Origin: Candidatus Hodarchaeota archaeon
GTDB lineage: Archaea > Asgardarchaeota > Lokiarchaeia > Sigyniarchaeales > SOKP01
Assembly: GCA_048887225.1 (NCBI GenBank)
Contig: JBHLJY010000010.1
Location: forward strand, 1 to 64,000
Direction: 5' to 3'
DNA length: 64,000 nucleotides
Shown here piece by piece: positions 9,661 to 61,915 of this stretch (positions are counted from its first letter, which is position 1; each line of letters opens with the position of its first letter). The notes under the pieces were generated by a model that did no database searches, had not been told where the DNA came from, and saw only the letters and a list, made by a program, of their open reading frames with translations. Made by a program: the position numbers and the translations under genes.

Positions 9661-9679
9661 AATCTCAAGATATAAGGAA

Positions 9680-9745
9680 TCTTATATTTCAGAACAAATA
9701 TATGATTCAATCTAAGACAAGATGATTAATAAAATAAAAAAAAAA
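9680..9745. repeat. Dispersed ~40-65 bp intergenic repeat (also 7406-7428, 11103-11138, 16141-16205, 49605-49650)
   Basis: Approximate consensus TCTTATATCTTAAACTAAATATATGATTCAATCTAAG read at each site. Confidence 0.8.
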
Positions 9746-9867
9746 ATTAGATTATATGATTTAATATTTCGATTTGCTTAACGTTTTTCTCTTCTTCGTA
9801 GCAATGTAAGTAAGTCCGACGAGATATTGATAAAAACCTAATATGAATTTAATTTCATGTAATATAG

Positions 9868-11080: not shown

Positions 11081-11199
11081 CTCATATTAAGGCATAGAGA
11101 AGCTTATTTCTTGAACTAAATATATGATTCGATCTAAGGAACAAATGAATACAATAGAAACTCCTAATATGATTTAAATTTCATGGATTATAGTTATTT

Positions 11200-16023: not shown

Positions 16024-16236
16024 TAAAAAAAAATTCTTCGATCTTTTTTATTTACTAAGAACTTTATCCAAATGCTATTAAATTCTCCATTATAAGAAGA
16101 TCAAGAATTTTATTTCTCTACAAAATAAAAAGAATATAAATCTTATATCTTAAACTAAGTATATGATTCAATCTAAGCCTAGATGATTAATAAAATAAAA
16201 TAAAAAAAAAAATAATTATTTTATAATCTTTTTTAT

Positions 16237-47141: not shown

Positions 47142-47420
47142 ATGAAGTCAGAAAAAGAAATCGATAAAGATCATCTTTTAGATTACATAAAAAAAGCAAT
47201 TAAATTGCTGTGTGAAAAGAATATCTCTGACCTTGTCATTTTATCATCTTATAAGATAAATTCTGTATTAAAGGAGAATTACGGTATTGACATAAAAGTC
47301 GATAAAATTGGGAGAATCTTAAGTAATATAGCTAAACGTAATCAACTAAAAAGACTCAATACTAATATTCCTAAATATAAATTAAAAATATCTAATTTCT
47401 CCAGTTTAAAATTCTTCTAA
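47142..47420 (+). CDS. Small basic hypothetical protein (possible wHTH)
   Basis: ORF in an intergenic slot; helical basic pattern KIGRILSNIAK. Confidence 0.55.
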   Translation: MKSEKEIDKDHLLDYIKKAIKLLCEKNISDLVILSSYKINSVLKENYGIDIKVDKIGRILSNIAKRNQLKRLNTNIPKYKLKISNFSSLKFF

Positions 47421-47492: not shown

Positions 47493-48818
47493 CTATTTCG
47501 TTATATAATTGATAATTTTTTGTAATTTTTGAGAGGCTTTACTCATTTGTAAATAAAGTTCATTAATACTATTTAATTCTGTATTCAATTTTTCAATATC
47601 ATTTGCAAAATTCTGTTCCAAGGAAGAGAGATCTGCTGATACAATATTCTCTATCTCGTTAGAGAAATTCTCTAACTCATTTGAGATTGTCGAGATTTTT
47701 TCTATAGTGTTGTTTATCTTTTCTTCTAATTTGAATGTTATATTGTTAGTATTATTAATTTCTTCTGTAATTCCTTTAATATTATTTTCAATTTTATTTA
47801 AGATATTATTAGAATTAATTTCCACAAGATTTATTAAATCATTTGAAATTTCGTCTTTAGATATAGAAAATTGGGTTTTTAAGTCCTTTTGAGCGTCAAT
47901 TCGAGGATCTACATATTTAGCTATATTTTCTTTAAAGTTGTTTGAAATTTCATCTAAATTTCTTTTAAACCAAGTTTCCACTTTAGACATTCCATTAGAG
48001 ATTTTATTTTTCATAATACTTGTTGCATTTCTTATAAGTTTCGAACCGATCAATGATCCTTCTTTAATATCTTTAGTCCAATTACCTAATTGAGATTTAA
48101 AGTTGTCCATAAATATATCTGCGAATTTTGAAGCCCCTTCTTGAAATCCTGAAATTATTGGCTCAACTTCAAGCAAAGTTTCTTCTGGTGCAGGGATCTC
48201 TTGAAGTTCACTCGGAGTTGGTTCTGTTAATTCATTGATTTCTTTGATTAAGATTGGGGCTTTCTTTTGGGTGTCTTCTACAAATTTTTGAACCCATTTA
48301 AAGTACTCAAGAGTATTTGGCAATTCTAACTCGTACACAACTTTATGATATTCAGTATTTTTTTCATCTGAATAATCATTTAATCTAAATATTTCAAAAC
48401 CTAATTTTCCCTCTTTACCCATTAAAGTATGGTCGAAAACTATATAAAAACCATAAGGTTTATTAACATTCTGGAAAAAATGGTGATTTTTAATCGCCGA
48501 GTCACTGAAAAACAAAGACCAACCTGGATGTGATGAGTACCAACCTACGATATTCATATTGTGGCTAGCATATTTATTTTCAATTTGAGTAAATGTATTA
48601 TAATCTTCTGAGGTTAAACCTAAGGAAACCTCTTTCCCATGAGTTATAGGTATGGCATTAATAAGATCTATATCTTTATCGTTTAATTTACCAATACAAA
48701 TTCCCATTACTTCAACACTTTCATCTAGAGCATCGTTCCCAAATCTTAAAACATGTGTAATCATGTTTCTAAACGCTTCCCTTTTAATATATACTTTCCC
48801 GTCTTTTATATTTATCAC
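47493..48818 (-). CDS. MPN-domain protein with degenerate JAMM motif (MPN-) + long coiled coil
   Basis: EVMG...VGWYSSHPGWSLFFSDSA: first His and terminal Asp of HxH-x7-S-x2-D lost. Confidence 0.85.
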   Translation of the reverse strand: MINIKDGKVYIKREAFRNMITHVLRFGNDALDESVEVMGICIGKLNDKDIDLINAIPITHGKEVSLGLTSEDYNTFTQIENKYASHNMNIVGWYSSHPGWSLFFSDSAIKNHHFFQNVNKPYGFYIVFDHTLMGKEGKLGFEIFRLNDYSDEKNTEYHKVVYELELPNTLEYFKWVQKFVEDTQKKAPILIKEINELTEPTPSELQEIPAPEETLLEVEPIISGFQEGASKFADIFMDNFKSQLGNWTKDIKEGSLIGSKLIRNATSIMKNKISNGMSKVETWFKRNLDEISNNFKENIAKYVDPRIDAQKDLKTQFSISKDEISNDLINLVEINSNNILNKIENNIKGITEEINNTNNITFKLEEKINNTIEKISTISNELENFSNEIENIVSADLSSLEQNFANDIEKLNTELNSINELYLQMSKASQKLQKIINYITK

Positions 48819-48985
48819 CTTTTTTTAAATTGGAATATGATAGTATTCAAATCCTTTAAGAAGGAATAGGTTATTCAAATTTTTACTTATATCCTTTTTA
48901 TTTAAAATATTAGTATTAAATAAGAAATTTAAATATAAAACATTTAATCTAAAATGAATAGTAAATATAAAAAAAAACTCTTCTA

Positions 48986-49510
48986 TTAGTACCAATAATC
49001 TAAAAGTTGATGATCCAGTGCGGTTTTGAGGTCATCCACTAAATCAGACCAATCAAGCCGAGGAAATTCCATATCTAATTCTATACCATACTTTTCCTTA
49101 ACTTCTTTTTTTAATGCTCTGATAATAAATTTCTGATAATCATTAAAACTACGTTTATACGTCTCAAGAACGATATGAATATCAATAAAACCCTCTTCAT
49201 ACAAAATCTTTTTTAGTTTGTCATATATATATATACGTTCATTGTAAAATCTATGACGTTTATTAATATTATGAAGCTCCCAAACTTCTACAGAAAATAA
49301 AACTGGTGTTTCTATGCCTTCTAGTCTAATTTCTTCAGCTAGAATATCTATAGATGAATGACCATAATCGGATTCTCCGATATTATGCTTATTCATAAAA
49401 TCGCGCACCCGCTTATTTTTGATTATGTTATCGTACTTTAACTTGTTAATTTTATTTAAATATACTTGTTCAGTACCAAATTTGTCAGTATGAAACATTT
49501 TATTTAACAT
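48986..49510 (-). CDS. Hypothetical protein (possibly 5'-truncated)
   Basis: 174-aa ORF, no recognised motif; open frame extends upstream through CRKC without a start codon. Confidence 0.5.
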   Translation of the reverse strand: MLNKMFHTDKFGTEQVYLNKINKLKYDNIIKNKRVRDFMNKHNIGESDYGHSSIDILAEEIRLEGIETPVLFSVEVWELHNINKRHRFYNERIYIYDKLKKILYEEGFIDIHIVLETYKRSFNDYQKFIIRALKKEVKEKYGIELDMEFPRLDWSDLVDDLKTALDHQLLDYWY

Positions 49511-49778
49511 AAATCGAATTGCTCGTTCATGAGTGATACTTCCGTTTGAGCATTTTCTGCAATAAAATTAATCCTATAATTAATTCTCTTTTTTTTCATT
49601 TCTATCTTATCTCTTGAACTAAATATATGATTCAACCTAAGACTAAATTGAAAAAAAAGAAAAAAAAGTTATATTGTTACTCTTTAAAAATTGCTTTTCG
49701 CTTCATAAATGCAATTAAAGAGAGTATGGCAATAAACGCAAATAGCAGATTGTATATTTTAAGAAAGAGAATTACTCA

Positions 49779-51041
49779 TCAATTTTTAAACTCAGAGTCT
49801 GGAGGTATATCACAATCAACAAAAGCGTAGGCAAAGATTTTTGAGTTCTTTCCAATTTTCACTCCTGGCAATAATTTTGCACCAGATTCAATAATTACGT
49901 TTTTTCCAATTTCTACATTCCCAGTTCTAAAATTAGAGACAGTTCCCTCATGAGTAAGGATCGTTGCACCGCTTTTTATTACAACACCCTCTTCAATTGT
50001 AATTTTTTCAGGATAATATGTGTCAAAGTGAACGTTATCTTCGATTTTAACACTTTTTCCTATTTTAACTCCCGCTTTTCTTAAAAGTGTTTGTCTAAAA
50101 CTCTGACTTACTAATGGCGATTTTTGCCATTCGATATACATATTATTAAACATTGTCTTGAAATGGTCACCTTTCGGAAATATCAATTTGCTCATATAAT
50201 CATGTAGCGTAAAATCTAAGCTTTCAACTCTTCTTTTTGGTAATTTTCTATTTGCATTTTTTTCAATCTTAATGGAGCCATCAATTCCCTTCGCCATTGT
50301 ATTTTCTTTTAAATCCGATGTTAAAAAACCCGGAGTTAAAATAGAATTATCTCCCATTTGAGTGCCAGGTAAGACAATAGAACCAAAACCAATAAGACAA
50401 TTCTTTCCAATTTTAACTTCACCAACGTATAATTCCCCATCAATACATTCATGACAAAAAATTGAGGCACCCATTCCCATAACCACATTATCACCAATGT
50501 CAACTAACTCTGGAAAATAAGGATCTACAACATTGCTAGATGAAAGATAAACTTTTGAACCCAATTTTGCTCCCATACTTTTTAAATGATGAGCTTTGAT
50601 TTCTGGGAGCCCAACATACGAACTTATAATATTAAGGGCATCCTTTATTCTCCACATACTAATTTTCTCAGTCTTTTTATTATTATACTCTTTTAATTCT
50701 TCTGTAGTTGCTGGTCGAATTCTTCTTCCATTTTCACCATCACGGCTAAGAATTGAATTTTTATATAACTTTTCAATCAATTCTGCATGTATTTCTTTAA
50801 TGTAGGTTTTATCGTCTAAATTTCGTGGAAATTCACTTTCTTCTTCAGGATCAATCAATAATGGGTTATAAAATTCCATATTTTTGATTAATGGATACAT
50901 TTCCACAAGTTTTTTTAAACTAGGCGGGATCACTTTATCCACTTTTTTCTTCCATTGTCTTTGACGTCGTTCTTGTTCTTCTTTCCATTGTTGAAACTTT
51001 TTTTGTTGATCTTTGAACCAATCTTCAATTTTATTGAACAT
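49779..51041 (-). CDS. Acyltransferase-like protein with two hexapeptide (left-handed beta-helix) domains
   Basis: Duplicated G(A/V)K(L/I)G...DxYxPE...H-E...IGKN...LPG repeats; N-terminal charged helix. Confidence 0.82.
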   Translation of the reverse strand: MFNKIEDWFKDQQKKFQQWKEEQERRQRQWKKKVDKVIPPSLKKLVEMYPLIKNMEFYNPLLIDPEEESEFPRNLDDKTYIKEIHAELIEKLYKNSILSRDGENGRRIRPATTEELKEYNNKKTEKISMWRIKDALNIISSYVGLPEIKAHHLKSMGAKLGSKVYLSSSNVVDPYFPELVDIGDNVVMGMGASIFCHECIDGELYVGEVKIGKNCLIGFGSIVLPGTQMGDNSILTPGFLTSDLKENTMAKGIDGSIKIEKNANRKLPKRRVESLDFTLHDYMSKLIFPKGDHFKTMFNNMYIEWQKSPLVSQSFRQTLLRKAGVKIGKSVKIEDNVHFDTYYPEKITIEEGVVIKSGATILTHEGTVSNFRTGNVEIGKNVIIESGAKLLPGVKIGKNSKIFAYAFVDCDIPPDSEFKN

Positions 51042-51224
51042 TTTAAAAAGTATATTCCCTCATTTTTAATCTATATTCTATAATATCAAATAATTTTTAA
51101 ATAGTGAAATTAAAAGTTAGCGAAATAATAAAAAAATACGGAAATAAAAAATATAAAATAGAAAACTATACTAAAAACAAAAAAAAGGAAATTTAATAGT
51201 TTAATTTAAATCTTTACTTAGAAT

Positions 51225-51344
51225 TTAGACCACTATTCCATATGCTACTCCTAATACGGTGATTACTATAACTACTGTGAGAATTAGAAAGAGAATTATC
51301 CAGATAATAAACAGTATTATTATTAAAGCGAGAAGATTAAACAT
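51225..51344 (-). CDS. Unannotated 39-aa hydrophobic microprotein MFNLLALIIILFIIWIILFLILTVVIVITVLGVAYGIVV
   Basis: Hand-translated ATG 51344 to TAA 51225; fills an intergenic gap; no charged residues. Confidence 0.55.
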   Translation of the reverse strand: MFNLLALIIILFIIWIILFLILTVVIVITVLGVAYGIVV

Positions 51345-51405
51345 TTATTGATAAAATTAAATAATCCTTAAACTAATATGATAATTAATTCAAATTAAGA
51401 AGTAA

Positions 51406-51639
51406 GTGAAAATAGAAAAAATGCAATATTGTATAAATTGTGGAGAAGTAATTTCGGAACATCAATTTGATAATTTTAACGGGATGTGTTCTGCTTGTAT
51501 TCGCCTGAATTTAAGCCGAAAAAGGTCGCTCTCAGATAATATGTCGGTGTCTAAATTTCTTTTAATTGTCTCAATTGTAATTCTTTTATTAGTTATATCA
51601 GGAATTATTATAGGCATTCTTTTTGTTCTCATGTCCTAA
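51406..51639 (+). CDS. Small zinc-finger protein with C-terminal TM anchor
   Basis: YCINCG...MCSAC followed by a hydrophobic C-terminal helix. Confidence 0.65.
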   Translation: MKIEKMQYCINCGEVISEHQFDNFNGMCSACIRLNLSRKRSLSDNMSVSKFLLIVSIVILLLVISGIIIGILFVLMS

Positions 51640-51709
51640 TAATTCAATCAATTCAAGAATCTCTAAAAAGTTATATGATCATATTAGATTTATAATTTTT
51701 TTAGATAGA

Positions 51710-52603
51710 TTACTCAATTAATAGTTCTTTGATTTTCTTTCTTGAATTTTCTATATCCAATAGAGCAGAAGAATTAGTAATGCTCAAAAGATCTGCCCAA
51801 ATATTTAACTCTTGAGAATTATATTCTGAGATCTCTTTAGTCTCCCTTAAATCCTTATAATAGGGCTCCATTTTTTTTACTTGGAATTGATTAGCTCCAC
51901 CATTCTTTCTCAAATTATTATAGCCTTCGATAGAAATTCCCGATTTATGTTTTTTATAATCATTTATTACAAAATAATTATTCCATAATTTATTATCAAT
52001 AGGCGGGACAACTAAGATTGGAATATTTCTATTTAATTTTCCATGAAGATTATCTCTTAGATAGTCTCCTACTGAAGCTTCAAAACCAAATATAGATATA
52101 AAGATAATTTGTGGGATTATCTTAGAATACTGTTTAAGCTCTTTTTTATGCAGTAATTGAGTAAATTTCTTCACTTCACCAGTTAATTTAAGCATCTGAA
52201 TTAATTTTAATGGTTGTATTTTCTTATTTGTAAAAATAAAGGTAATTTTTAGATTACTATTTTCTTTTTCGACCTCATCAGAATATTGATCTTCGATTCT
52301 AATTTTATCATTTAGTTTTTCAAAATAATTTCTTGAACTCTTAGAAATAGAATTAGAAATCTGTTCTTCAACTTCGTTTATAATTAAATCAGCAATTCGT
52401 TGCTGAAATGCATTATTAAATGCAAAATTGTGATTTCTAAATATCCTTATAGAATTATTTTTTGAGATAATAATTTTACTCTCGATTAAATCTATGTAAG
52501 GGCTATATATTTTCTGCCATATCTCCCCTGAACCGTCCATTTCTAATAATGAGAAAGGATAATTTCTCAAAATATTAGATTTACTTTCTGTATGTATTGT
52601 CAT
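51710..52603 (-). CDS. Hypothetical protein
   Basis: 297-aa ORF; no recognised motif. Confidence 0.55.
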   Translation of the reverse strand: MTIHTESKSNILRNYPFSLLEMDGSGEIWQKIYSPYIDLIESKIIISKNNSIRIFRNHNFAFNNAFQQRIADLIINEVEEQISNSISKSSRNYFEKLNDKIRIEDQYSDEVEKENSNLKITFIFTNKKIQPLKLIQMLKLTGEVKKFTQLLHKKELKQYSKIIPQIIFISIFGFEASVGDYLRDNLHGKLNRNIPILVVPPIDNKLWNNYFVINDYKKHKSGISIEGYNNLRKNGGANQFQVKKMEPYYKDLRETKEISEYNSQELNIWADLLSITNSSALLDIENSRKKIKELLIE

Positions 52604-52695
52604 TTGTTTTACACATCTTTTTAAATTTTAGAATGTTTTTTTCTGGTTAAACAAATCTAAATTATTTTTGGATTTAATTCTTTAATCAATCCTTC

Positions 52696-52938
52696 TTAAC
52701 CATAATTAACAATATATATAGAATTTGTTAAATTAAATTTTTCAATTCTAATATTGTTTATTGATCCTTCCTTCCTTGAATCTTGGAGTGGTGTTTTGAT
52801 AACAAATTTTATATCGTTTAAATATAAGTTATCATAAAAAATTCCATTATTCTTATTAAAATCAACAAATTTACTTAAATGGTTCTCTAAAATTCTCAAA
52901 CTTCTCTTCTCATTATTTTGGTTAAATCTACTACACAT
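52696..52938 (-). CDS. Hypothetical small protein or gene fragment
   Basis: 80-aa ORF co-oriented with 51710..52603. Confidence 0.3.
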   Translation of the reverse strand: MCSRFNQNNEKRSLRILENHLSKFVDFNKNNGIFYDNLYLNDIKFVIKTPLQDSRKEGSINNIRIEKFNLTNSIYIVNYG

Positions 52939-53446
52939 TGTTTTATTTATATTCCTTGAAACACCAATAAATTAAATCTCATAATATCTTAAATTTCAAA
53001 TGACTACTGTCAAAAAAGCCATAAGATATTTGTCACTTTCATTGTCGAAATAATTAAGAACGACAATGCTACAAGAGATTCGATTTAAGAAAAAATCTTA
53101 AACTTAAAAATTTTAAGGATCTCAAATTTTTTTTGTGTCTGTATTAATAGTAGTAATAATGATATTTATAATTAACGCTAAATAGTTCTAATTTATTAAA
53201 ACTCAGCAGACCTAAATTTTTTTTTATTAAAATTTAAAAGCTGAAATTTTTTTAAGTTTAACCTCTCAAAATCCCCATCTTTAAATAATATCTCTATTTT
53301 CTTACTTAGATTTATAGTCTGGAATAATATCTAAAAGAAAAGATCCCCAAGATTCTGTAAATCAAATCATATTATAATTTATAATAAGTAAAACTTATAC
53401 CATTGAAATTTTATTTTATTATTGAAAAAGAAATAAAATCTAGACT

Positions 53447-54457
53447 ATGATAGAGAAATTTTTAGTTATATCTTATTTTGATATGCACATAGGGCCTAAT
53501 ATCCTTTACAGTAATTCAGATTTTAGTAATGTCTATGAATTTCCTGATTTAACGAAAATATTGGATTTTATTGATGAGGATGGTACTTTTTTATTTTCTT
53601 TTAGAAAATTTCAAACTATTAATACTGTTTTTTATATGAAATCTGACAATGCAAGGGGAGGAAAAGATCTACTTATGATTTCTTGTGTAATCCAAGCCTC
53701 ATATTTTAAAAATGAACTAACTGATATTCTTCAATACTTAGAATCAAAGAAACCTCTTTTGGAAAAATTTGTAGCTGAATTGAAAGCACTCCCGAATTTT
53801 AACTTAGTTCTACACAAATATAAAAAAAATCCGACCATAAAGCAATTTACAGAATATTGTGAAAAAGAAAAAGTAGATTTTTTTTCTATTTATGATAGAT
53901 TTTTTGATCTAATTTACCCAGAATCTGAAATCAGAATCATCACCCAAGATATTAATCTTCAAAAAAAAATTTTACTATTAGGACCTAAAGGTTCTGGTAA
54001 AGATACATTTTTAAGATCCATTGAAGCGCTCCAATTTTATAGTCAAAGCAAATTAGATATTCCCACTAGGATTCTAGGTATAATAATTGATAATATTATT
54101 TTGTCTAATACATTTGAATTTTTAAATGGCAAAGTCGGATTAGATATCGCTCAAGCGGTAATTTTTCTTATTAAAAATATCGATAAAATTACCTGTAATG
54201 AAGTCAATTCATTAATAGAAAAATTTATTTCTTCCTATTCAAGCCAGAAGTTTGGAAAAGTTCCGCTTTTAATTATAAATAATGTCTTTAAAGATAAGAC
54301 ACCTTTAAGAGAAAAAGAGATAAAAAAAAATATTTCTATCCTTAAAAGATTAAAAAAAGAAAAAATTCCAATTAAATATTATTCACTAAATGTTTTTAAA
54401 AAAGACCCGAAATTATTAGAACCTTTAAAGTGGTTAATTAAAGAGATTTTTACTTAA
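53447..54457 (+). CDS. Longin/uDENN-like domain fused to a degenerate P-loop GTPase domain
   Basis: YFDMHIGPNIL and SDNARGGKDLLMIS; GPKGSGKDT P-loop; no DxxG or NKxD. Confidence 0.68.
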   Translation: MIEKFLVISYFDMHIGPNILYSNSDFSNVYEFPDLTKILDFIDEDGTFLFSFRKFQTINTVFYMKSDNARGGKDLLMISCVIQASYFKNELTDILQYLESKKPLLEKFVAELKALPNFNLVLHKYKKNPTIKQFTEYCEKEKVDFFSIYDRFFDLIYPESEIRIITQDINLQKKILLLGPKGSGKDTFLRSIEALQFYSQSKLDIPTRILGIIIDNIILSNTFEFLNGKVGLDIAQAVIFLIKNIDKITCNEVNSLIEKFISSYSSQKFGKVPLLIINNVFKDKTPLREKEIKKNISILKRLKKEKIPIKYYSLNVFKKDPKLLEPLKWLIKEIFT

Positions 54458-54864
54458 TCATTATTATTTTTCAAAAGAGGAAATGCTAGAGCCATTGTAT
54501 CAGTGATTTTAATTAAAAAAAGCAAAATTTTCCAGAGCTAGCTGAAGTTATTATAAACTTTATCAAAAACAATCCATAATTGGAATATTACTTTTTTTGC
54601 TTTAGAAAATAAATTTGGATATTTGGAAGTTAAAATCTATATGGTAGTAAATTATTTGAATTTGTACCTACATTTATAAAAAGGATTTTAATATTTTCGA
54701 GATTAAATAAAAGAAATAGAATTATCATTTCAAAAAAATCATAAAGATACTCTTTAAATTTATTCATTATTCAAAAATTGCGTTAATAATATATAAATCA
54801 AGACTCAGTTAAGAAAAACTGAATTATTCAGTATTGAACATTGGATATTAAAGATATAATTGAC

Positions 54865-56355
54865 TTATTCGCTCCCTCCCTCTGTATTGTGTAATTTATT
54901 TGATAATTCTCGTTTTTGAGCTTCTAATTCTTTTATTTTATTTGATAATTCTTGTTTTTGAGTTTCTAATTCTTTTATTTTATTATTTAAAGAATTAATA
55001 GAACTTTCCAAGTGGGATGTATTTGAGGTTAAATTGGATAAAAAAGTCTGAGTTTCATTTTGTAAATCACTAAATTTTTTTGTTAAAATCTCGATTTGTT
55101 CTTTAATATTTTCTCTAAATTTTTCTTGAAATCCTTTTAATTTGTCTGAAGTTAACTTTTCTATTGATTTTATTTTTTCAGATAAATTTTCTAAAGATAA
55201 ATGTTGTTGATCTAAATTTTCTGAAGATCTAACGTTTTTATTAGTCATTTCTGTTAAAATCTTTGAATTTTCATCTAAAATTTGCACAATTTTATTTAGT
55301 GAAATTTTAATCTTTTCTTTAAATAATTCATTTATCTTTAGAGGAAGTTCTTCTTTTAATTTAACCATCAAATTTTCAATATCTTCTCGATCTTTATCAA
55401 AAGTTTCAAATCGATCATCTATATAGACTTCAAGCTCATTTAGCTTATCTATTAATGAAAATTTAAAATTATTCTGAATAGTATCAAGCCCTTGTTTTAA
55501 GCTGTCTTTTAACTCTATTAAATCACCTCTTATTTGTAAATTATTCTCCATCGTAATTTTTATAATTTCCTGACTCCAAGAGTTAAAATAATTTATTAGT
55601 GGTTCAATTGAAAATTGTAAAAAATTTGAAATCCCATTATATAAAGCTGAGAATATTTCTTTTAGTTTTAATTCGGGTTTGGCTGCTAATAATTCGCTTT
55701 TGTCAGGAAAGAAAATTTCGCCAAAAAGATCCGGAGTTTCATTGATTTCTAAAATTGGTGGCTCTTGGGAGTGAATAATATTTATTAATTCCATTAATTT
55801 AATGTAAAACTCCATATTATCGGGATGTTCTACTCTTGTTTCTACTTCGTGATATTTTGATTTTGAACCCTTCGAAGGATCGTCAAGTCTGAAAGTTCTA
55901 AAACCCAAATCTTCTGGATTTTCTAAATAAGTATGATCAAAAACAATCCCGATGGCGCTTGGATTTGGAGTTTGCCAACCAAGTTGATTGAGAATATCTG
56001 TTCCTGAAAAAAATATTTGTAAGCCAGGGTGGCTATGATACCAACCTACTGTAAACCAATTTTTCTCGGCAAACTCTTCATCCACTTGAGCAAAAGTTAT
56101 ATAATCTTCAGGTGCAAATGCAACTTCAATCGACCCTCCATGTGAAATCGGAACAGCTTCTTCAACAATAACATTTTTTATTACTCCTTCGCCTTCAAGA
56201 TGCCCAATTAACATACCCATTACTTCTCTATATTGTCTAGGATCTCTCGCTCTATTACCAAAACGTAGAGTATGAACTAACATTTTGTAATATGCTAACG
56301 GTTTGATCACAACTATTTCATTAGTATCATTTAGCTTTGAACGGCTTTTACTCAA
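54865..56355 (-). CDS. MPN+/JAMM metalloprotease (Rpn11/CSN5-like) + long coiled coil
   Basis: EVMGML...VGWYHSHPGLQIFFSGTD intact JAMM; FRL; heptad-rich C-terminus. Confidence 0.9.
   Translation of the reverse strand: MSKSRSKLNDTNEIVVIKPLAYYKMLVHTLRFGNRARDPRQYREVMGMLIGHLEGEGVIKNVIVEEAVPISHGGSIEVAFAPEDYITFAQVDEEFAEKNWFTVGWYHSHPGLQIFFSGTDILNQLGWQTPNPSAIGIVFDHTYLENPEDLGFRTFRLDDPSKGSKSKYHEVETRVEHPDNMEFYIKLMELINIIHSQEPPILEINETPDLFGEIFFPDKSELLAAKPELKLKEIFSALYNGISNFLQFSIEPLINYFNSWSQEIIKITMENNLQIRGDLIELKDSLKQGLDTIQNNFKFSLIDKLNELEVYIDDRFETFDKDREDIENLMVKLKEELPLKINELFKEKIKISLNKIVQILDENSKILTEMTNKNVRSSENLDQQHLSLENLSEKIKSIEKLTSDKLKGFQEKFRENIKEQIEILTKKFSDLQNETQTFLSNLTSNTSHLESSINSLNNKIKELETQKQELSNKIKELEAQKRELSNKLHNTEGGSE
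54897..54985 (-). repeat. 42-bp tandem repeat (~2.1 copies) extending the coiled coil
   Basis: NKIKELETQKQELS / NKIKELEAQKRELS, near-identical at the DNA level. Confidence 0.85.
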
Positions 56356-56478
56356 ATATATTCACTTTTTTTGAAATATAGATTTGTTAATTCTTAATAT
56401 TATTAATATAATTTAACTGATTTAAATTTTCAATATAACTATTTGAAGAATAAAAAAGAGTAAAATTAATCGCTAATA

Positions 56479-57165
56479 CTAATGCTCATGAGGTAATGGC
56501 TTTCCGCAAAAAGGGCAAAATTTGAAGTCTATATCTTTCCCGCAATATGGACAGAATTTAGATATTTCTTCCGCGACCTCTTCTGAAGGTGTCTCCACAG
56601 ATACTTCTTCTTTCGGAGGGGCTCCTGGAATTGTGGGTAATTGTCGTTTTGTTTTCATTGTAGGTGCTGATACTTTTTCTTCCTTTGCTCTCTCAGCTGC
56701 CACCCTTTCTTTGAAAGCTATGCGCTGTTCTTCAATCATATCCTCTTGAGTTTTCTCACCTTCTTGCTTAACCCAACCAGGACCTTTAGAAGGTCGTTTT
56801 ATCTCGCTTTCGGGAACTTTTTCTAATTCAACCTCTTTTGTTTCAGCAATGGGTACCTTTGCTTTTTTCTCTTGTTTTCTCTCAAGTGCCTGTTTTACCA
56901 AGGCTTGTGAGGTCTTCATAATTTGATGAGGATTAATGTTAGGTATCATTACAGTTCTTAATACCCAGCCAACAAGGTAATTCTGATTTGGATATTCCCT
57001 TTCTGCTGCTAATTCTGTGTCTTTAAATACATATGAATCAATCACATCTTTACCTTTTAGAATTCGGGAGGCCCATTTATTATTAATCAAACCAAGTTGC
57101 AATCGATAAGATGTCCCGGCTATTCCAAGCTGACCAGTTAATGGAATAAAACCTTGTTCAGTCAA
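56479..57165 (-). CDS. Hypothetical protein: N-terminal globular domain, charged disordered linker, C-terminal double zinc ribbon
   Basis: FCPYCG...FCPFCG; E/K/P-rich middle. Confidence 0.75.
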   Translation of the reverse strand: MTEQGFIPLTGQLGIAGTSYRLQLGLINNKWASRILKGKDVIDSYVFKDTELAAEREYPNQNYLVGWVLRTVMIPNINPHQIMKTSQALVKQALERKQEKKAKVPIAETKEVELEKVPESEIKRPSKGPGWVKQEGEKTQEDMIEEQRIAFKERVAAERAKEEKVSAPTMKTKRQLPTIPGAPPKEEVSVETPSEEVAEEISKFCPYCGKDIDFKFCPFCGKPLPHEH

Positions 57166-57357
57166 ATTAAATCACACTTTTTTTATATGAATAAAAATCC
57201 TATTTTCAACTGGAATTTGTTATAATTTGAATTATAATTATGATAATAATATAATTTTAATAATTAAATAATTTTATATTCAAGAAAAAACATAAATAAA
57301 AAAAATATTATTATGAGTAAAAAAGCTTATAAAAATAAAAAAAACATCCATTAAAAA

Positions 57358-58314
57358 ATGACCGTTATTATTCCAAAAAAGGCTTATTTAACTGTTGTAG
57401 CAGCTTCTATTAGATATGCTAACGCTAAGATTCCTTTTGATGATTGGTTAGAAATTTATGGTATTTTTACTGGAAAGACTTCCAAAGATGGTGAAGATTT
57501 AATAATTACAGAAGCATATAATATAACACATCAAGTTAGAAAGGAAGAGGATATAATAGACAAAGTATTTTGGTCTGACGAAGATTATATTTCATTTAGC
57601 ATAATTGACGACGAAGCTTTTTCAAAAGGTGAATATACTGTAGGATGGTTTCATTCTCATCCAGGTCATAGAGTTATGATGACTAGTTTGGATATTCGTA
57701 CTACAGCAACTTATCAAAAATTTAATCCTCTCGCAATATCCCTTGTATTTAATCCTGAACGATTAATTAAACAACGTGAACCAGCAGTAAAAAGAGGAGA
57801 TCCAGATATTAAATTAAAAAACGATCCTGGGTTTAAGATTTTTAGTTTAGATGATCCTGAAATGCTTGATTCAAATTATCACGAAGTAAATGATTATAGG
57901 ATTGAGGGATTTGAAAGCATGGAACAATTAGTTGAGAAATCTCAAAAATTTGCCTTGGATATAACTAATCTCTTTCCGAAAGATGATATTATTAAAAGCT
58001 ATAAGAAGTTCGTAAAAAGTAATATAAAGCAGTTAAATTCATTATTAATGGGAACTGAAGAATATTTGAAAACATTGGCATTAAAAGGTGAAAAGAGTAG
58101 GATTCCTGAAGTTTTAGAAACACAAGGAAAAGATATTAAAAAATTTGTAGCTGAAACATTCATGAAAATAGAAAATATAAAAGATTTCATGGATTATCTT
58201 GAATATAAAGAAAGAGAGGCTATAATTCCAAAAGTAAATGATGTCTTATCTAGATGGGATGATGCTATTTCTAATTTGGATCATCAATTAAACGAATTAT
58301 CAAGAAAATTTTAA
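57358..58314 (+). CDS. MPN+/JAMM protein with helical C-terminus
   Basis: EIYG...VGWFHSHPGHRVMMTSLD (Thr in place of Ser). Confidence 0.85.
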   Translation: MTVIIPKKAYLTVVAASIRYANAKIPFDDWLEIYGIFTGKTSKDGEDLIITEAYNITHQVRKEEDIIDKVFWSDEDYISFSIIDDEAFSKGEYTVGWFHSHPGHRVMMTSLDIRTTATYQKFNPLAISLVFNPERLIKQREPAVKRGDPDIKLKNDPGFKIFSLDDPEMLDSNYHEVNDYRIEGFESMEQLVEKSQKFALDITNLFPKDDIIKSYKKFVKSNIKQLNSLLMGTEEYLKTLALKGEKSRIPEVLETQGKDIKKFVAETFMKIENIKDFMDYLEYKEREAIIPKVNDVLSRWDDAISNLDHQLNELSRKF

Positions 58315-58414: not shown

Positions 58415-60625
58415 ATGAAAAAGATTAATTTTCCATTTACAGCGATATTAGGACAAGACAAAATGAAAATGGGCTTAATTTTAAATGTAATTGATCCTCA
58501 AATTGGTGGAGTTTTATTAACAGGTCACCAAGGGACTGGGAAGTCAACCGCCGTGAGATCTTTAGTGGAAGTTATGCCAAAAATAGAAACAATTGAAGAC
58601 TGTCAATTTTCTTGCGATCTAAAATCAAATATCGATGATCTCTGTGCTTCCTGTCGCGAGAAAAAGGAAAAAGGAAAATTAAAAACATATATTCGAGAAA
58701 TGAAAATTGTGAACCTACCTCTTGGGGTTACTGAAGATATGGTATGCGGAAGTTTATCCATTGATAAAGTTCTTACAGAAGGAACTTCAGAACTTCATCC
58801 AGGCTTATTGGCTAAAGCAAATCGAGGGATTTTATATGTCGATGAAATTAATCTATTACAAGATCATATAGTTGATGTTCTATTAGATGCTGCAGCCTCA
58901 GGAGTTAATATAATCGAAAGAGAAGGAATCTCTGTTATGCACCCCTCTAGGTTTGTACTAGTTGGCTCAATGAATCCTGAAGAAGGAGAATTAAGGCCTC
59001 AAATAGCCGATCGATTAGGTTTGGAGGTAAAAATTAAGGCGCCTCGTGATCCTGTTTTACGGGCTGAAATTACAAAGCGAGTAATAGAATTTGATGACAA
59101 TCCGAAAGAATTCGTAAAAAAATTTGATAAGAAACAAGAACAACTAAAGCAAAAAATTATTAAGGCAAGAGATATAATAAAAGAAGTTCAGATTCCAGCG
59201 AAGATTTATGAATTAGTATCAAAAATCGTTAATGATCTCGGGATTTTCTCACAAAGAGCAGATATCACTTTCATTAGATGTGCTAGAGCTCACGCTGCTT
59301 TAAATAATAGAAGGAAGATTGAACAGGAGGATCTCAATGTTGCTATGGATTTAGTTTTCGAGCATCGTATTGCATCATTACATTATGAACTGACACCTAA
59401 AGAGATAAAAGCAAAAATTACCGAAGTTTACGGAAAAATTGAAGAAGCATACGAAGACCCAAAAATATATAAGTCAAATCCGGAAACTGAAGGGCCTTTA
59501 AAGCACGATGATGCTGCGCAAGAAGAATTCAAACGGCAATCTGTTGATCCTGATAAAGTAGATGTTGGAGAAACGAAAGAACAAAAACTTCCTCCTCCTA
59601 AATATCCAGATAAGAAAAAGAGAAAAGCAAGACCAGCAGGTGGCTGGAAAGTTAAGGATATACCAATTGAAGAAGCGGATAATTTTAATTTATCAGATGA
59701 TGATTTTGATATAATCCCCTTTATTTATAAGATGGAAAAAAAAATGACTTCTATTTTAGATAATATTCGCAAGGATCGTAGAATTTCTGATTATGGAGGT
59801 CGGGGGATTGGTCGTAGAATTAAAATAGCGTCATCTCAAAAAGGAAGATACGTATCGTATCGAAGTCCTAGAGGTCAACAACCAAAAAGTATTGCATTAG
59901 ATGCTACAATAAGGAATTACTTAAAAAATATTATTTACAATCAAACGGAAATTAACTTTCCGATTAGATTTAATAAATACGATTTGATGGATAAAATTTA
60001 CGAATATCGGGCACCTTTAGCGCTATTTTTTGTCCTTGACAGTTCAGCGTCAATGTACTATGTTATTAAACAAATGACTGATGTTATTTTATCTTTACAA
60101 AAAGAAGGATATAGGAAAAGAGATAAAATTTGCCTTATAATCTTTAGAGGTAAAGAAGCAGTTGTTTTGCAGAAACCTACTGTTAATTTTAAATATGCAG
60201 TAAATAAGTTAAAAAAAATAGAAGGAAAATCATATACACCAATGGCAGCTGCTTTAAGGAAGGTTATGGATTTAATAAAAGTAGAGAGAATGAAAAATCG
60301 AAATATAGTTCCTGTAATTTTTATTTGTTCAGACTGTGGTGCTAATATTTCAGCGAAATATCCTGAGTTGATTGCTCAAATCGAAAGTGACTATGCTGTG
60401 GTTATTCAAGAATTAAAGGAATTGACCAAAAAACTGACAAAACAAAAAGTTCACATAGTTGTGTTAGAACCAAAGAAATCATATGCAACGCAAGCACTCG
60501 GTGTACATCCATATTCTGCTGATAAAATAAAAAAAAATTTTAAGAAGTATGGTAATGCTGAGATATATAAGTTCGATCGTTATAATCCGTCTTCTTTGAT
60601 CCTTGAATTAAAAAAGATTCTTTAA
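58415..60625 (+). CDS. ChlI/ChlD-like AAA+ ATPase fused to a vWA domain
   Basis: FPFTAILGQ, GHQGTGKS, LYVDEIN, MNPEEGELR; MIDAS DSSAS...TP...SD. Confidence 0.88.
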   Translation: MKKINFPFTAILGQDKMKMGLILNVIDPQIGGVLLTGHQGTGKSTAVRSLVEVMPKIETIEDCQFSCDLKSNIDDLCASCREKKEKGKLKTYIREMKIVNLPLGVTEDMVCGSLSIDKVLTEGTSELHPGLLAKANRGILYVDEINLLQDHIVDVLLDAAASGVNIIEREGISVMHPSRFVLVGSMNPEEGELRPQIADRLGLEVKIKAPRDPVLRAEITKRVIEFDDNPKEFVKKFDKKQEQLKQKIIKARDIIKEVQIPAKIYELVSKIVNDLGIFSQRADITFIRCARAHAALNNRRKIEQEDLNVAMDLVFEHRIASLHYELTPKEIKAKITEVYGKIEEAYEDPKIYKSNPETEGPLKHDDAAQEEFKRQSVDPDKVDVGETKEQKLPPPKYPDKKKRKARPAGGWKVKDIPIEEADNFNLSDDDFDIIPFIYKMEKKMTSILDNIRKDRRISDYGGRGIGRRIKIASSQKGRYVSYRSPRGQQPKSIALDATIRNYLKNIIYNQTEINFPIRFNKYDLMDKIYEYRAPLALFFVLDSSASMYYVIKQMTDVILSLQKEGYRKRDKICLIIFRGKEAVVLQKPTVNFKYAVNKLKKIEGKSYTPMAAALRKVMDLIKVERMKNRNIVPVIFICSDCGANISAKYPELIAQIESDYAVVIQELKELTKKLTKQKVHIVVLEPKKSYATQALGVHPYSADKIKKNFKKYGNAEIYKFDRYNPSSLILELKKIL

Positions 60626-60679: not shown

Positions 60680-61915
60680 GTGAAATCCATTTTAGTTGTG
60701 GGATTTAACACGCGTCCATTAGCATATTCCCTGAAAAATGCGGGGTATGAGGTATATGCTGTAGATTTTTTCGGTGATCTGGATTTATATCCAAATATAA
60801 AGGATTGCATAATTGTTATTAAGAAGCTGCAGACTAATTATTCACTAATTAAAGATAGATATAGCAAATTTTTAGCTGAATTTACTATAGATTTAATGCA
60901 AATGTACCCTAAGATAAATTATATCTTAATTAGCAGTGGTTTAGACGATTCATATAAAGAAAGAGAAATGATTCTAAATGAGATAAAAAAAAGCAAATAT
61001 AAGATTTTAAGCCTTAATAACAAAATAGATACAATTAAAAAAGCTCGAAATATTGAAAATATTTATAATATTTTAAAATCTAAAGAGTATCACGTTCCTT
61101 TAACGTACTCCTTTGAGGAGTTTAAATCCAAAATCTATAAATTTGAATTTCCTTTTATTTTTAAAAAAAAAAAAGGATCTGGTGGGATTAATGTCAACAA
61201 GATTGAAAACGAGAATCAATTATCTTTTTTTATAAAGAAGCAAAAAATCAAGCGCTTTAATCCATCAGATTGGCTAATTCAAGAATATATAAAAGGATTG
61301 CCTATTAGTTGTACGGTTATATCAAATGGTTTAGAATGTGAAGTAATCTCGATCAATAGACAACTTATTGGATTAAAATTTCTAAATCCTCCTAAAGAAT
61401 TTATGTATTGTGGTAATATAGTTCCTGCTAATATAATTAAAGAGGATGAAAAATTAATTTCTGAGATTTCAGTATTTTTAACTAAAACGCTCGGTTTAAG
61501 GGGTATAAATGGATTTGATTTTGTATTGAAAGATCATTATCCTTATCTGATGGAGATCAATCCAAGAATACCTGGTTCTATTAATGTTTCGGAAACTGTT
61601 TTGAATTTAAACTTATTAGATTTACATATAAAAAGTTTTATAAATTCTAAATGGGAATTTATTAAAAATACAATTAACTGTACTAAACCTAAAGGATTTG
61701 CAACTAAATTGATAATGTTTGCTCCAAAAGAAATTGATAAGGAAGTAATACCAAAAATAAATCAACTTGAAAATGTATACGATAAAACTGAACCAAAAAC
61801 AGTATTAAAAGACGAACCTTTATGTACAATATTATATAAAGATAAAAATTTTTCAGAATCTTATTTTGGAGCGTTAAAAATTGTAAATGAAATAAAGAAA
61901 ATTATAGGGGATTAA
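60680..61915 (+). CDS. ATP-grasp enzyme (family associated with archaeal C1-cofactor genes)
   Basis: DFFGDLD, KGSGG, IQEYIKG, YCGN, GFDFV, EINPR. Confidence 0.85.
   Translation: MKSILVVGFNTRPLAYSLKNAGYEVYAVDFFGDLDLYPNIKDCIIVIKKLQTNYSLIKDRYSKFLAEFTIDLMQMYPKINYILISSGLDDSYKEREMILNEIKKSKYKILSLNNKIDTIKKARNIENIYNILKSKEYHVPLTYSFEEFKSKIYKFEFPFIFKKKKGSGGINVNKIENENQLSFFIKKQKIKRFNPSDWLIQEYIKGLPISCTVISNGLECEVISINRQLIGLKFLNPPKEFMYCGNIVPANIIKEDEKLISEISVFLTKTLGLRGINGFDFVLKDHYPYLMEINPRIPGSINVSETVLNLNLLDLHIKSFINSKWEFIKNTINCTKPKGFATKLIMFAPKEIDKEVIPKINQLENVYDKTEPKTVLKDEPLCTILYKDKNFSESYFGALKIVNEIKKIIGD

Follow-up and report, generated by a model that had tools for sequence, protein, structure and literature searches.

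A tandem MPN gene pair of one Lokiarchaeial family and the recurrent loss of the catalytic site from one of its members

The proteasome lid, the COP9 signalosome and BRISC each have an MPN+/MPN- heterodimer as their catalytic core. In the Rpn11/Rpn8 and CSN5/CSN6 pairs, one of two paralogous MPN proteins has an intact JAMM motif and the other lacks Zn ligands, and in BRCC36/Abraxas, which is also an MPN+/MPN- pair, the two proteins are joined via their MPN domains and C-terminal helices. Here we describe two paralogous MPN genes, which we call A and B, from a stretch of 64,000 nucleotides (the window) of contig JBHLJY010000010.1 of a Candidatus Hodarchaeota archaeon, which is contig C10 of its genome (G000; 3.27 Mb, completeness 98%). 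We consider it fairly probable that their products are an operon-derived MPN+/MPN- heterodimer, in which B is the enzyme and A a retained dead partner, and which arose separately from the eukaryotic pairs. No description of such a pair was found in the literature on Asgard MPN pairs, pseudoenzymes, Rpn8, the signalosome and BRCC36, of which our coverage was incomplete.

The A and B genes

Three MPN/JAB proteins, A, B and C, are encoded inside 11 kb of the AT-rich window (G+C 24-36%), as seen from the list of open reading frames (ORFs) and their translations. A (47493..48818, minus strand, 441 aa) consists of an MPN domain (residues ~1-190), a conserved linker, PILIKEINE, and an amphipathic helical tail of ~225 aa. 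Its JAMM motif (residues 95-108; 48495..48536, minus strand) is degenerate and reads SSH-x7-S-x2-A (VGWYSSHPGWSLFFSDSAIKN), with Ser for the first His and Ala for the Asp of HxH-x7-S-x2-D. A retains the Ser and the second His, as well as the upstream Glu (in EVMG), which gives a five-residue state of E, S, H, S, A, short of the JAMM/MPN+ set. In B (54865..56355, minus strand, 496 aa) the motif HSH-x7-S-x2-D is intact (residues 107-120; 55996..56037, minus strand; HSHPGLQIFFSGTD) and all five JAMM/MPN+ residues are present; the MPN domain (residues 15-194) is followed by a linker with an invariant PPILEINE and by helices at 231-310 and 318-493. C (57358..58314, plus strand, 318 aa), a third MPN+ paralog transcribed divergently from B, carries HSH-x7-T-x2-D (residues 99-112; 57652..57693, plus strand; HSHPGHRVMMTSLD), in which Thr replaces Ser and the other JAMM residues are present.

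All three proteins score above the 22.5-bit cut-off of the Pfam JAB model PF01398 (A 55.3 bits, E 7e-15; B 50.2 bits, E 3e-13; C 44.9 bits, E 1e-11), and A also matches Pfam UPF0172, an EMC8/9-like family, at 27.9 bits. No NCBIfam family was matched by A, B, C or the Zn-ribbon protein encoded next to B. A and B align over their full length with 29% identity (E 2e-47), while only the MPN domain is shared with C (B-C E 8e-26, A-C E 1e-13). An earlier sequence-only reading of this DNA had listed the three ORFs and their motifs and had taken A for a paralog of B that lacks two Zn ligands; the coordinates and translations match, the full-length alignment bears out the paralogy, and the two ligands concerned are the first His and the Asp. 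As a separate observation, the 3' end of B contains a tandem 42-nt duplication (window 54892-54975, 93% identical), which repeats a 14-residue unit of the tail, KELE-x-QK-x-ELSNKI.

When 100 genomes of the class were searched with A as query, its ortholog was nearly always found directly beside a second, weaker match of ~490 aa. We fetched 40 loci with such an adjoining pair and classified their ORFs, and sets from 41 genomes were used in alignments. B was followed by A, adjacent and on the same strand, in 40/40 related loci, with a median distance of 6 nt from the B stop to the A start (range -26 to 57) and a gap of 0-17 nt in 38/40 genomes. The adjacency was seen independently as consecutive locus tags in NCBI records of metagenome-assembled genomes. 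A Zn-ribbon ortholog precedes B in 36 of the 40 loci, and a C ortholog lies divergently ~1 kb upstream of B in most of them. The usual order is thus an operon of the Zn-ribbon gene, B and A, with C divergent upstream. Genes for a P-type ATPase and a pyridoxal phosphate (PLP) enzyme also recur near these loci.

The distribution of the pair is narrow. Across a phylum-wide sample of 151 genomes it was present in 25/25 genomes of the Lokiarchaeial family to which the window belongs (f1), and it was found in none of the 124 phylum genomes searched outside f1 and the neighbouring family f2; the rest of the sample gave MPN-domain matches only, with E ~1e-26 or weaker and mostly of 210-330 aa. One f2 genome (L046) also carries the pair, according to the class-level search. 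The sequence-only reading had taken A and B for a possible pair and had proposed adjacency in other Lokiarchaeia as a check; by the 40 loci, together with the phylogeny described below, they are a genuine pair whose linkage is ancient.

A short ORF of 92 aa (window 47142-47420, plus strand), without family assignment, is convergent with A. It is highly conserved, with 98% identity to the sister species and 67-75% in another genus, and holds its position beside the 3' end of A in several genera.

Loss of the catalytic site in A

The catalytic columns were read from MAFFT alignments of the 41 genomes. B reads E/H/H/S/D in 41/41 and is intact in all 119 metagenomic cluster representatives that cover the region (119/119), and every whole copy of C (26/26) is intact, Thr replacing Ser in two. 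A is intact in 18/41 genomes (16 EHHSD, 2 EHHTD) and degenerate in the other 23, where its states are EHRSD, QHHSD, ESHSE, ELHSG, ESHSA, EIHSE, QHHAD, EIHRD, ECNAH, EIHVD, EIHND, KLHTD and KIHND. Among the metagenomic representatives A is intact in 54/117 and degenerate in 63/117. Altogether ~20 distinct degenerate patterns occur, affecting the Glu, either His, the Ser or the Asp. Invariant columns number 48 in B, where they include the five catalytic positions, and 13 in A, where they include no catalytic one. Family-wide identity is 27-52% for A, the fastest-evolving gene of the cluster, and 38-59% for B. Nevertheless, dozens of A orthologs with a dead motif have conserved flanks, such as GWYSSHPGWGLFFSDSAIKNH.

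We built a maximum-likelihood 'quick' tree of 82 A and B sequences, which has several long branches among the A sequences. In it, A and B each form a monophyletic clade of their own, with a support of 100 for either in the Shimodaira-Hasegawa-like approximate likelihood ratio test (SH-aLRT), and their internal topologies mirror each other. This indicates that a single duplication preceded the radiation and that the two copies then co-diverged. A and B are therefore the products of one tandem duplication of a tailed MPN+ gene, which dates from the base of one Lokiarchaeial family or earlier. The basal A lineages have the intact motif, and parsimony requires four active-to-dead changes in A, of which well-supported branches force at least three. 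A of the window's genus has lost the first His and the Asp; in part of genus g2 the first His was lost and Asp became Glu, and in part of g5 the second His became Arg. Elsewhere, Glu was replaced by Gln in three lineages, and the first His was lost together with the Ser in g3 and g6.

The asymmetry between an enzyme and a pseudoenzyme that had been read from the window thus holds in that B is always intact and A repeatedly degenerate. It does not hold throughout the family, because both proteins are MPN+ in 18/41 genomes, so that the pseudoenzyme state is specific to certain lineages and A is not inherently a pseudoenzyme. We also considered broken C genes as a correlate of an active A, and saw no correlation in the loci compared.

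In the window, A is separated from B by 6 kb, as described below. Compared with A of the sister species G069, which has the same SSH..A motif, the ratio of non-synonymous to synonymous substitution rates (dN/dS) is 0.155 in the MPN- domain and 0.13 in the tail, the corresponding figures being 0.14 for the MPN domain of B and 0.19 for C. Since the sister species keeps the motif and dN/dS is 0.13-0.16, A does not seem to be decaying. Judging from these sequences, A is probably a maintained pseudoenzyme, also after its separation from B. Simple decay had been put forward as what would overturn the reading of A as a pseudoenzyme, and it is at odds with substitutions that are conserved within the genus in a gene under purifying selection.

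Predicted dimer and comparison with known MPN systems

The AlphaFold model of B (mean predicted local distance difference test score, pLDDT, 74.6) comprises the MPN domain, a disordered linker with the invariant PPILEINE, to which PILIKEINE of A corresponds, and the two long helical stretches. Foldseek matched this model to BRCC36 of BRCA1-A and BRISC, to CSN5/CSN6 and to Rpn11/Rpn8, with E-values of 3e-9 to 1e-7. The tails had been described as coiled coils; they are long helices in the B model, as that description implied, but a heptad coiled coil is unsupported because the hydrophobic period of the tails of both A and B is 3.6-3.68 residues rather than 3.5. A profile of the A family matches apolipoprotein A-IV (1e-10), apolipophorin III and ApoA-I. 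This suggests that the tails may be amphipathic helices, possibly lipid-binding or arranged in a straight bundle, and the matches may be compositional.

For complex prediction we used the MPN domains, residues 1-230 of B and 1-216 of A, each with a 41-row alignment. The A-B model reached an interaction prediction score from aligned errors (ipSAE) of 0.89 (0.89, 0.89 and 0.88 in individual runs), compared with 0.01 for the best of three controls. The mark applied to ipSAE is reached by 58/80 solved complexes and by 2/110 mismatched pairs, rates which hold only roughly here because custom alignments were used. The runs share at least 83% of their contacts and the pLDDT of the partner is at least 83. 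At the predicted interface, each protein contributes its first helix (B 19-37, A 16-31) and the final helix of its MPN domain (B 177-197, A 164-190) to a four-helix bundle; the two final helices touch at equivalent residues, which implies a parallel arrangement. Within the MPN domain of A, conservation is higher in the interface columns than elsewhere (entropy 1.25 vs 1.62; Mann-Whitney U test, p 0.012, the rows being related). The multimer check proposed earlier, when run on the A and B MPN domains, thus supports a dimer at the level of a model, and A and B, as modelled, most likely heterodimerise.

CsRpn11 of Caldiarchaeum subterraneum crystallised as a parallel homodimer through H1 and H4 (PMC6043591), the same elements as those predicted to join A and B. 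It is short, single and encoded in a Ub-E1-E2-E3 operon, whereas A and B are duplicated, tailed and encoded outside any ubiquitin operon. It is also the nearest solved sequence relative of B (4e-12), followed by Rpn11, CSN5, BRCC36 and AMSH.

Several features are common to A/B and to the Rpn11/Rpn8 and CSN5/CSN6 pairs: two paralogous MPN proteins of which one has an intact JAMM motif and the other lacks Zn ligands, an MPN-MPN dimer (here predicted) and helices after the MPN domain. B itself resembles Rpn11 and CSN5 in sequence and fold matches. In contrast, the profile of A is closer to MPN+ enzymes than to Rpn8 (profile-to-PDB matches of 1.5e-11 for Rpn11, ~1e-11 for CSN5 and BRCC36 and only 1.5e-4 for Rpn8), the tails of A and B are amphipathic helices of 225-265 aa, and both partners are still MPN+ in the 18 genomes mentioned above. 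The relation to the eukaryotic families was judged from this profile-to-PDB ranking, the tree being made of A and B sequences only. A and B are sister clades and the pair is restricted to a family, which places them outside Rpn8, CSN6, Rpn11 and CSN5 orthology. As the duplication is restricted to one Lokiarchaeial family, the pair would be convergent with Rpn11/Rpn8 rather than ancestral to it. The proposal of an Rpn11/Rpn8-style pair is accordingly retained for the analogous asymmetry and abandoned for descent, in view of the family-restricted duplication and of an A profile nearer Rpn11 than Rpn8. By analogy, the pair probably works like Rpn11/Rpn8 while lying outside those orthologous groups, as a family-specific, convergent case.

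PCI partners are a further difference. The cluster has no PCI match, weak PCI-like matches being found on other contigs only, so that unlike the lid, CSN and eIF3, which are PCI-MPN complexes, A/B has no PCI partner gene in its cluster. As a side observation, a PCI match at C2:173149-173388, which exceeds the cut-off with 26.6 bits, falls within an ORF of 1251 aa, ~4 kb from the MPN gene of the ubiquitin operon. The best Foldseek match of the B model was BRCC36, over ~300 columns that cover the MPN domain and the following helix, and BRCC36/Abraxas is likewise an MPN+/MPN- pair; moreover, BRISC and BRCA1-A include the VWA protein MERIT40, and a VWA protein is encoded near A/B. In sequence, B is less similar to BRCC36 than to Rpn11; no UEV/BRE-like partner accompanies the pair, and its origin is independent.

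In the mechanism that we favour, A and B would form a heterodimer whose first and last MPN helices pack as a four-helix bundle, a packing from which both tails would exit on the same side. B would be the sole obligatory Zn isopeptidase of the pair, with a likely substrate among the ubiquitin-like modifiers encoded elsewhere in the genome. A would act as its partner in a structural or regulatory role, in which an active site of its own would no longer be needed and could be lost independently in several lineages, including the window's genus (H to S, D to A). The pair is prokaryotic and encoded by an operon, and its state varies among related genera, from both sites active to one of the two dead. 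The clade-specific ligand losses therefore provide natural variants for the long-standing question of why MPN deubiquitinases recruit a dead paralog, and what such a paralog contributes once catalysis is gone.

A number of points weigh against a heterodimer of this kind. About 44% of the genomes (the same 18/41) have two MPN+ partners. Binding is a model score, and as MPN-MPN dimers have already been solved, the A-B model may have passed through its likeness to them; the complex test is also passed by close paralogs of the true partner. Adjacency taken alone is weaker evidence than it appears, since all pair-bearing genomes belong to one family plus one outlier, in which general synteny is kept too. 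No ubiquitin, E1 or E2 genes occur in the A/B/C cluster, which makes the substrate a guess. Finally, A of the window is intact as a gene though uncoupled from the B operon, which is compatible with an independent function.

Alternative readings and the wider cluster

One alternative is that A and B are adjacent tandem paralogs which act separately, each as its own homodimer, A having been re-purposed as a non-catalytic binder or scaffold unrelated to B. Non-catalytic MPN proteins that act as binders or scaffolds exist, as in the Prp8 MPN domain and EMC8/9. Such a role for A would accord with its match to the EMC8/9-like UPF0172, with the homodimerisation of CsRpn11 through H1/H4 in the crystal, with purifying selection on an A gene that now lies 6 kb from B, and with a complex test that is blind to the difference between a true partner and a close cousin. 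We nevertheless regard separate action as unlikely, given that the gaps of 0-17 nt in 38/40 genomes and the mirrored trees point to co-expression, and that catalysis has been lost in one member of the pair only, among more than 100 sequences of each, which is the pattern expected if the partner supplies the activity.

A further alternative keeps the pair and places it at the centre of a larger machine, for which the whole conserved cluster would code and whose other parts would be the Zn-ribbon protein, C and two proteins encoded downstream of C. The Zn-ribbon protein (56479..57165, minus strand, 228 aa), the first gene product of the operon with B and A, is predicted to have a confidently folded N-domain of ~100 aa (pLDDT ~90), which a charged, disordered linker joins to a CxxC-x8-CxxC ribbon at the C-terminus. 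Its N-domain had no Foldseek match in the PDB at E <= 0.001, its best VIA-align match was to a designed protein (Z 6.8), and a search of Atlas returned only its own cluster. A PH-like fold was considered for this domain and not assigned, the scores for EVH1 (4.9) and the Rpn13 Pru domain (3.9) being within noise. Directly downstream of C lies a gene for a ChlI/ChlD-like fusion of an AAA+ ATPase and a VWA domain (58415..60625, plus strand, 736 aa), followed by one for an ATP-grasp ligase-like protein (60680..61915, plus strand, 411 aa). Between most of the family's loci the AAA-VWA protein has 75-83% identity, which makes it the most conserved product of the neighbourhood, and it scores 582 bits with TIGR02442, a 'putative cobaltochelatase' family, below the cut-off of 779. 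A PF02514 search for CobN/ChlH was negative in this 98% complete genome, with positive controls; since CobN/ChlH is not detectable there, the AAA-VWA protein appears to be an orphan whose role in a chelatase is doubtful.

Such a machine might be a remodelling or tag-removal complex, loosely like the 19S lid and base or BRISC/BRCA1-A, possibly seated at a membrane via the tails. The 19S particle offers parallels in its MPN pair, its AAA+ ring and the VWA domain of Rpn10. The idea draws on the synteny of the six genes in most genera of the family, on an AAA-VWA protein that lacks a chelatase partner, and on the period of the tails and their matches to ApoA-IV, ApoA-I and apolipophorin III. However, the AAA+-VWA and ATP-grasp genes follow C in many genera and not in all, the link between C and the AAA-VWA gene being broken in L034, L035, L037, L042 and L043, and in genus g4 C lies 12-20 kb away from the operon of the Zn-ribbon gene, B and A. 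The genomes are close kin, so that synteny may be inherited rather than selected, and the tail matches are perhaps only compositional or periodic. We consider both the machine and its proposed role in remodelling or tag removal improbable, and because the linkage to C is broken in several genera we treat any involvement of the AAA-VWA protein with the pair as speculative. A related and more ambitious proposal is that a lid- or BRISC-like deubiquitinase module evolved here independently, comprising a Zn-ribbon receptor, an obligate MPN+/MPN(+/-) heterodimer with apolipoprotein-like, membrane-binding tails, C and possibly an AAA+-VWA remodeller; we put it forward tentatively, as an unlikely outcome. 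Were it true, the genera would stand for different stages of the change from enzyme to pseudoenzyme that gave rise to Rpn8, CSN6 and Abraxas in eukaryotes.

The genome encodes six MPN genes in total, and the three beyond A, B and C are all intact. One of them (265 aa, C2:177465-177806) lies in a canonical ubiquitin operon with E2, E1 and a ubiquitin-like gene; the others are an MPN+ protein of 548 aa (C3:16736-17086) with a long, helical, repeat-like C-terminal region and one of 374 aa (C7:57553-57897) with a helical tail. As the ubiquitin operon has its own Rpn11-like gene, the A/B/C cluster would be a separate system. Genes for ubiquitin-like proteins, E1 and E2 are present on contigs C2 and C3, and the ubiquitin-like proteins, encoded at ~180.0 kb of C2 and ~63.3 kb of C3, are candidate substrates of B. 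Family relatives have 5-6 MPN matches per genome, compared with 1-2 in the other Asgard genomes searched. Some Asgard archaea therefore have more MPN proteins than the one Rpn11-like enzyme of their ubiquitin operon, with six paralogs here.

The DNA that now separates the pair in the window is a species-specific block of 6,066 bp (48799..54865, from the B stop to the A start), which the sequence-only reading had suspected to be a later insertion. The congener G069, with ~87-95% nucleotide identity in this region, has ~40 bp at the equivalent interval, which marks the gap as recent and species-specific. The block holds five genes, encoding hypothetical proteins of 174 and 297 aa, a hexapeptide transferase, a product of 80 aa and a weak Arf-like protein. 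The part with the hexapeptide transferase is found on G030:C93 and G224:C11, and the part with the 297-aa, 80-aa and Arf-like genes on G030:C52 and G224:C207. Dispersed repeats lie inside the block (~49575..49774), with many copies in the genome, and at its edge abutting the 3' end of B (~54691..54860), with copies on contigs C11, C4 and C42 and in G069. A simple transposon insertion was rejected, as the block has no target-site duplication and its parts are scattered over different congener contigs; searches for target-site duplications and terminal inverted repeats around it gave AT-rich chance matches only. The suspicion of a later insertion was thus well founded, and sequence comparison confirms it: the gap is a mosaic rearrangement, recent and specific to this species, which has dispersed repeats at its borders and through which A moved 6 kb from B without relaxed selection.

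That A is a decaying copy, inactivated and then stranded by this 6-kb insertion, is very improbable and already largely refuted, for although A has lost two Zn ligands, evolves fastest in the cluster and is separated from its operon, its frame is full length, the sister species keeps its motif at a dN/dS of 0.13-0.16, and dozens of dead-motif orthologs retain conserved flanks.

Some minor observations concern the DNA around the block. The repeat of 49575-49774 has dozens of copies in the genome, on contigs C1, C2, C4, C6, C7 and C28, and copies of the same type occur in the window at ~9679-9753, 11103-11138 and 16140-16209. In the comparison of A with the sister species (window 47496-48818 vs L047:3-629 and L048:2214-2975), the rate of synonymous substitution (dS) was 0.54 in the 5' (MPN) half of A and 0.21 in its tail, and ~0.10-0.11 in B, C and the Zn-ribbon gene. 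The higher dS in the 5' half suggests that the DNA beside the rearrangement breakpoint may have had a different history, such as recombination.

Lastly, the C gene contains a frame-breaking insert of 30-32 nt in seven genomes of a sister genus, at an identical spot inside the JAMM motif, between the codons for HSHPGF and KVMMS (L011:4626-4716(-), L017:4567-4658(-), L019:4510-4600(-), L021:10306-10395(+), L023:10330-10419(+), L025:10233-10323(+) and L026:10299-10389(+)); the C gene of the window is without it. The insert folds as helix-bulge-helix, each junction lying beside a helix of 5 bp, and shows compensatory changes, including 5' exon UGGCU/UGGUU against AGCUA/AACUA at the 3' end of the insert. 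By these features it looks like a mini-intron of the bulge-helix-bulge (BHB) type in a protein-coding gene.

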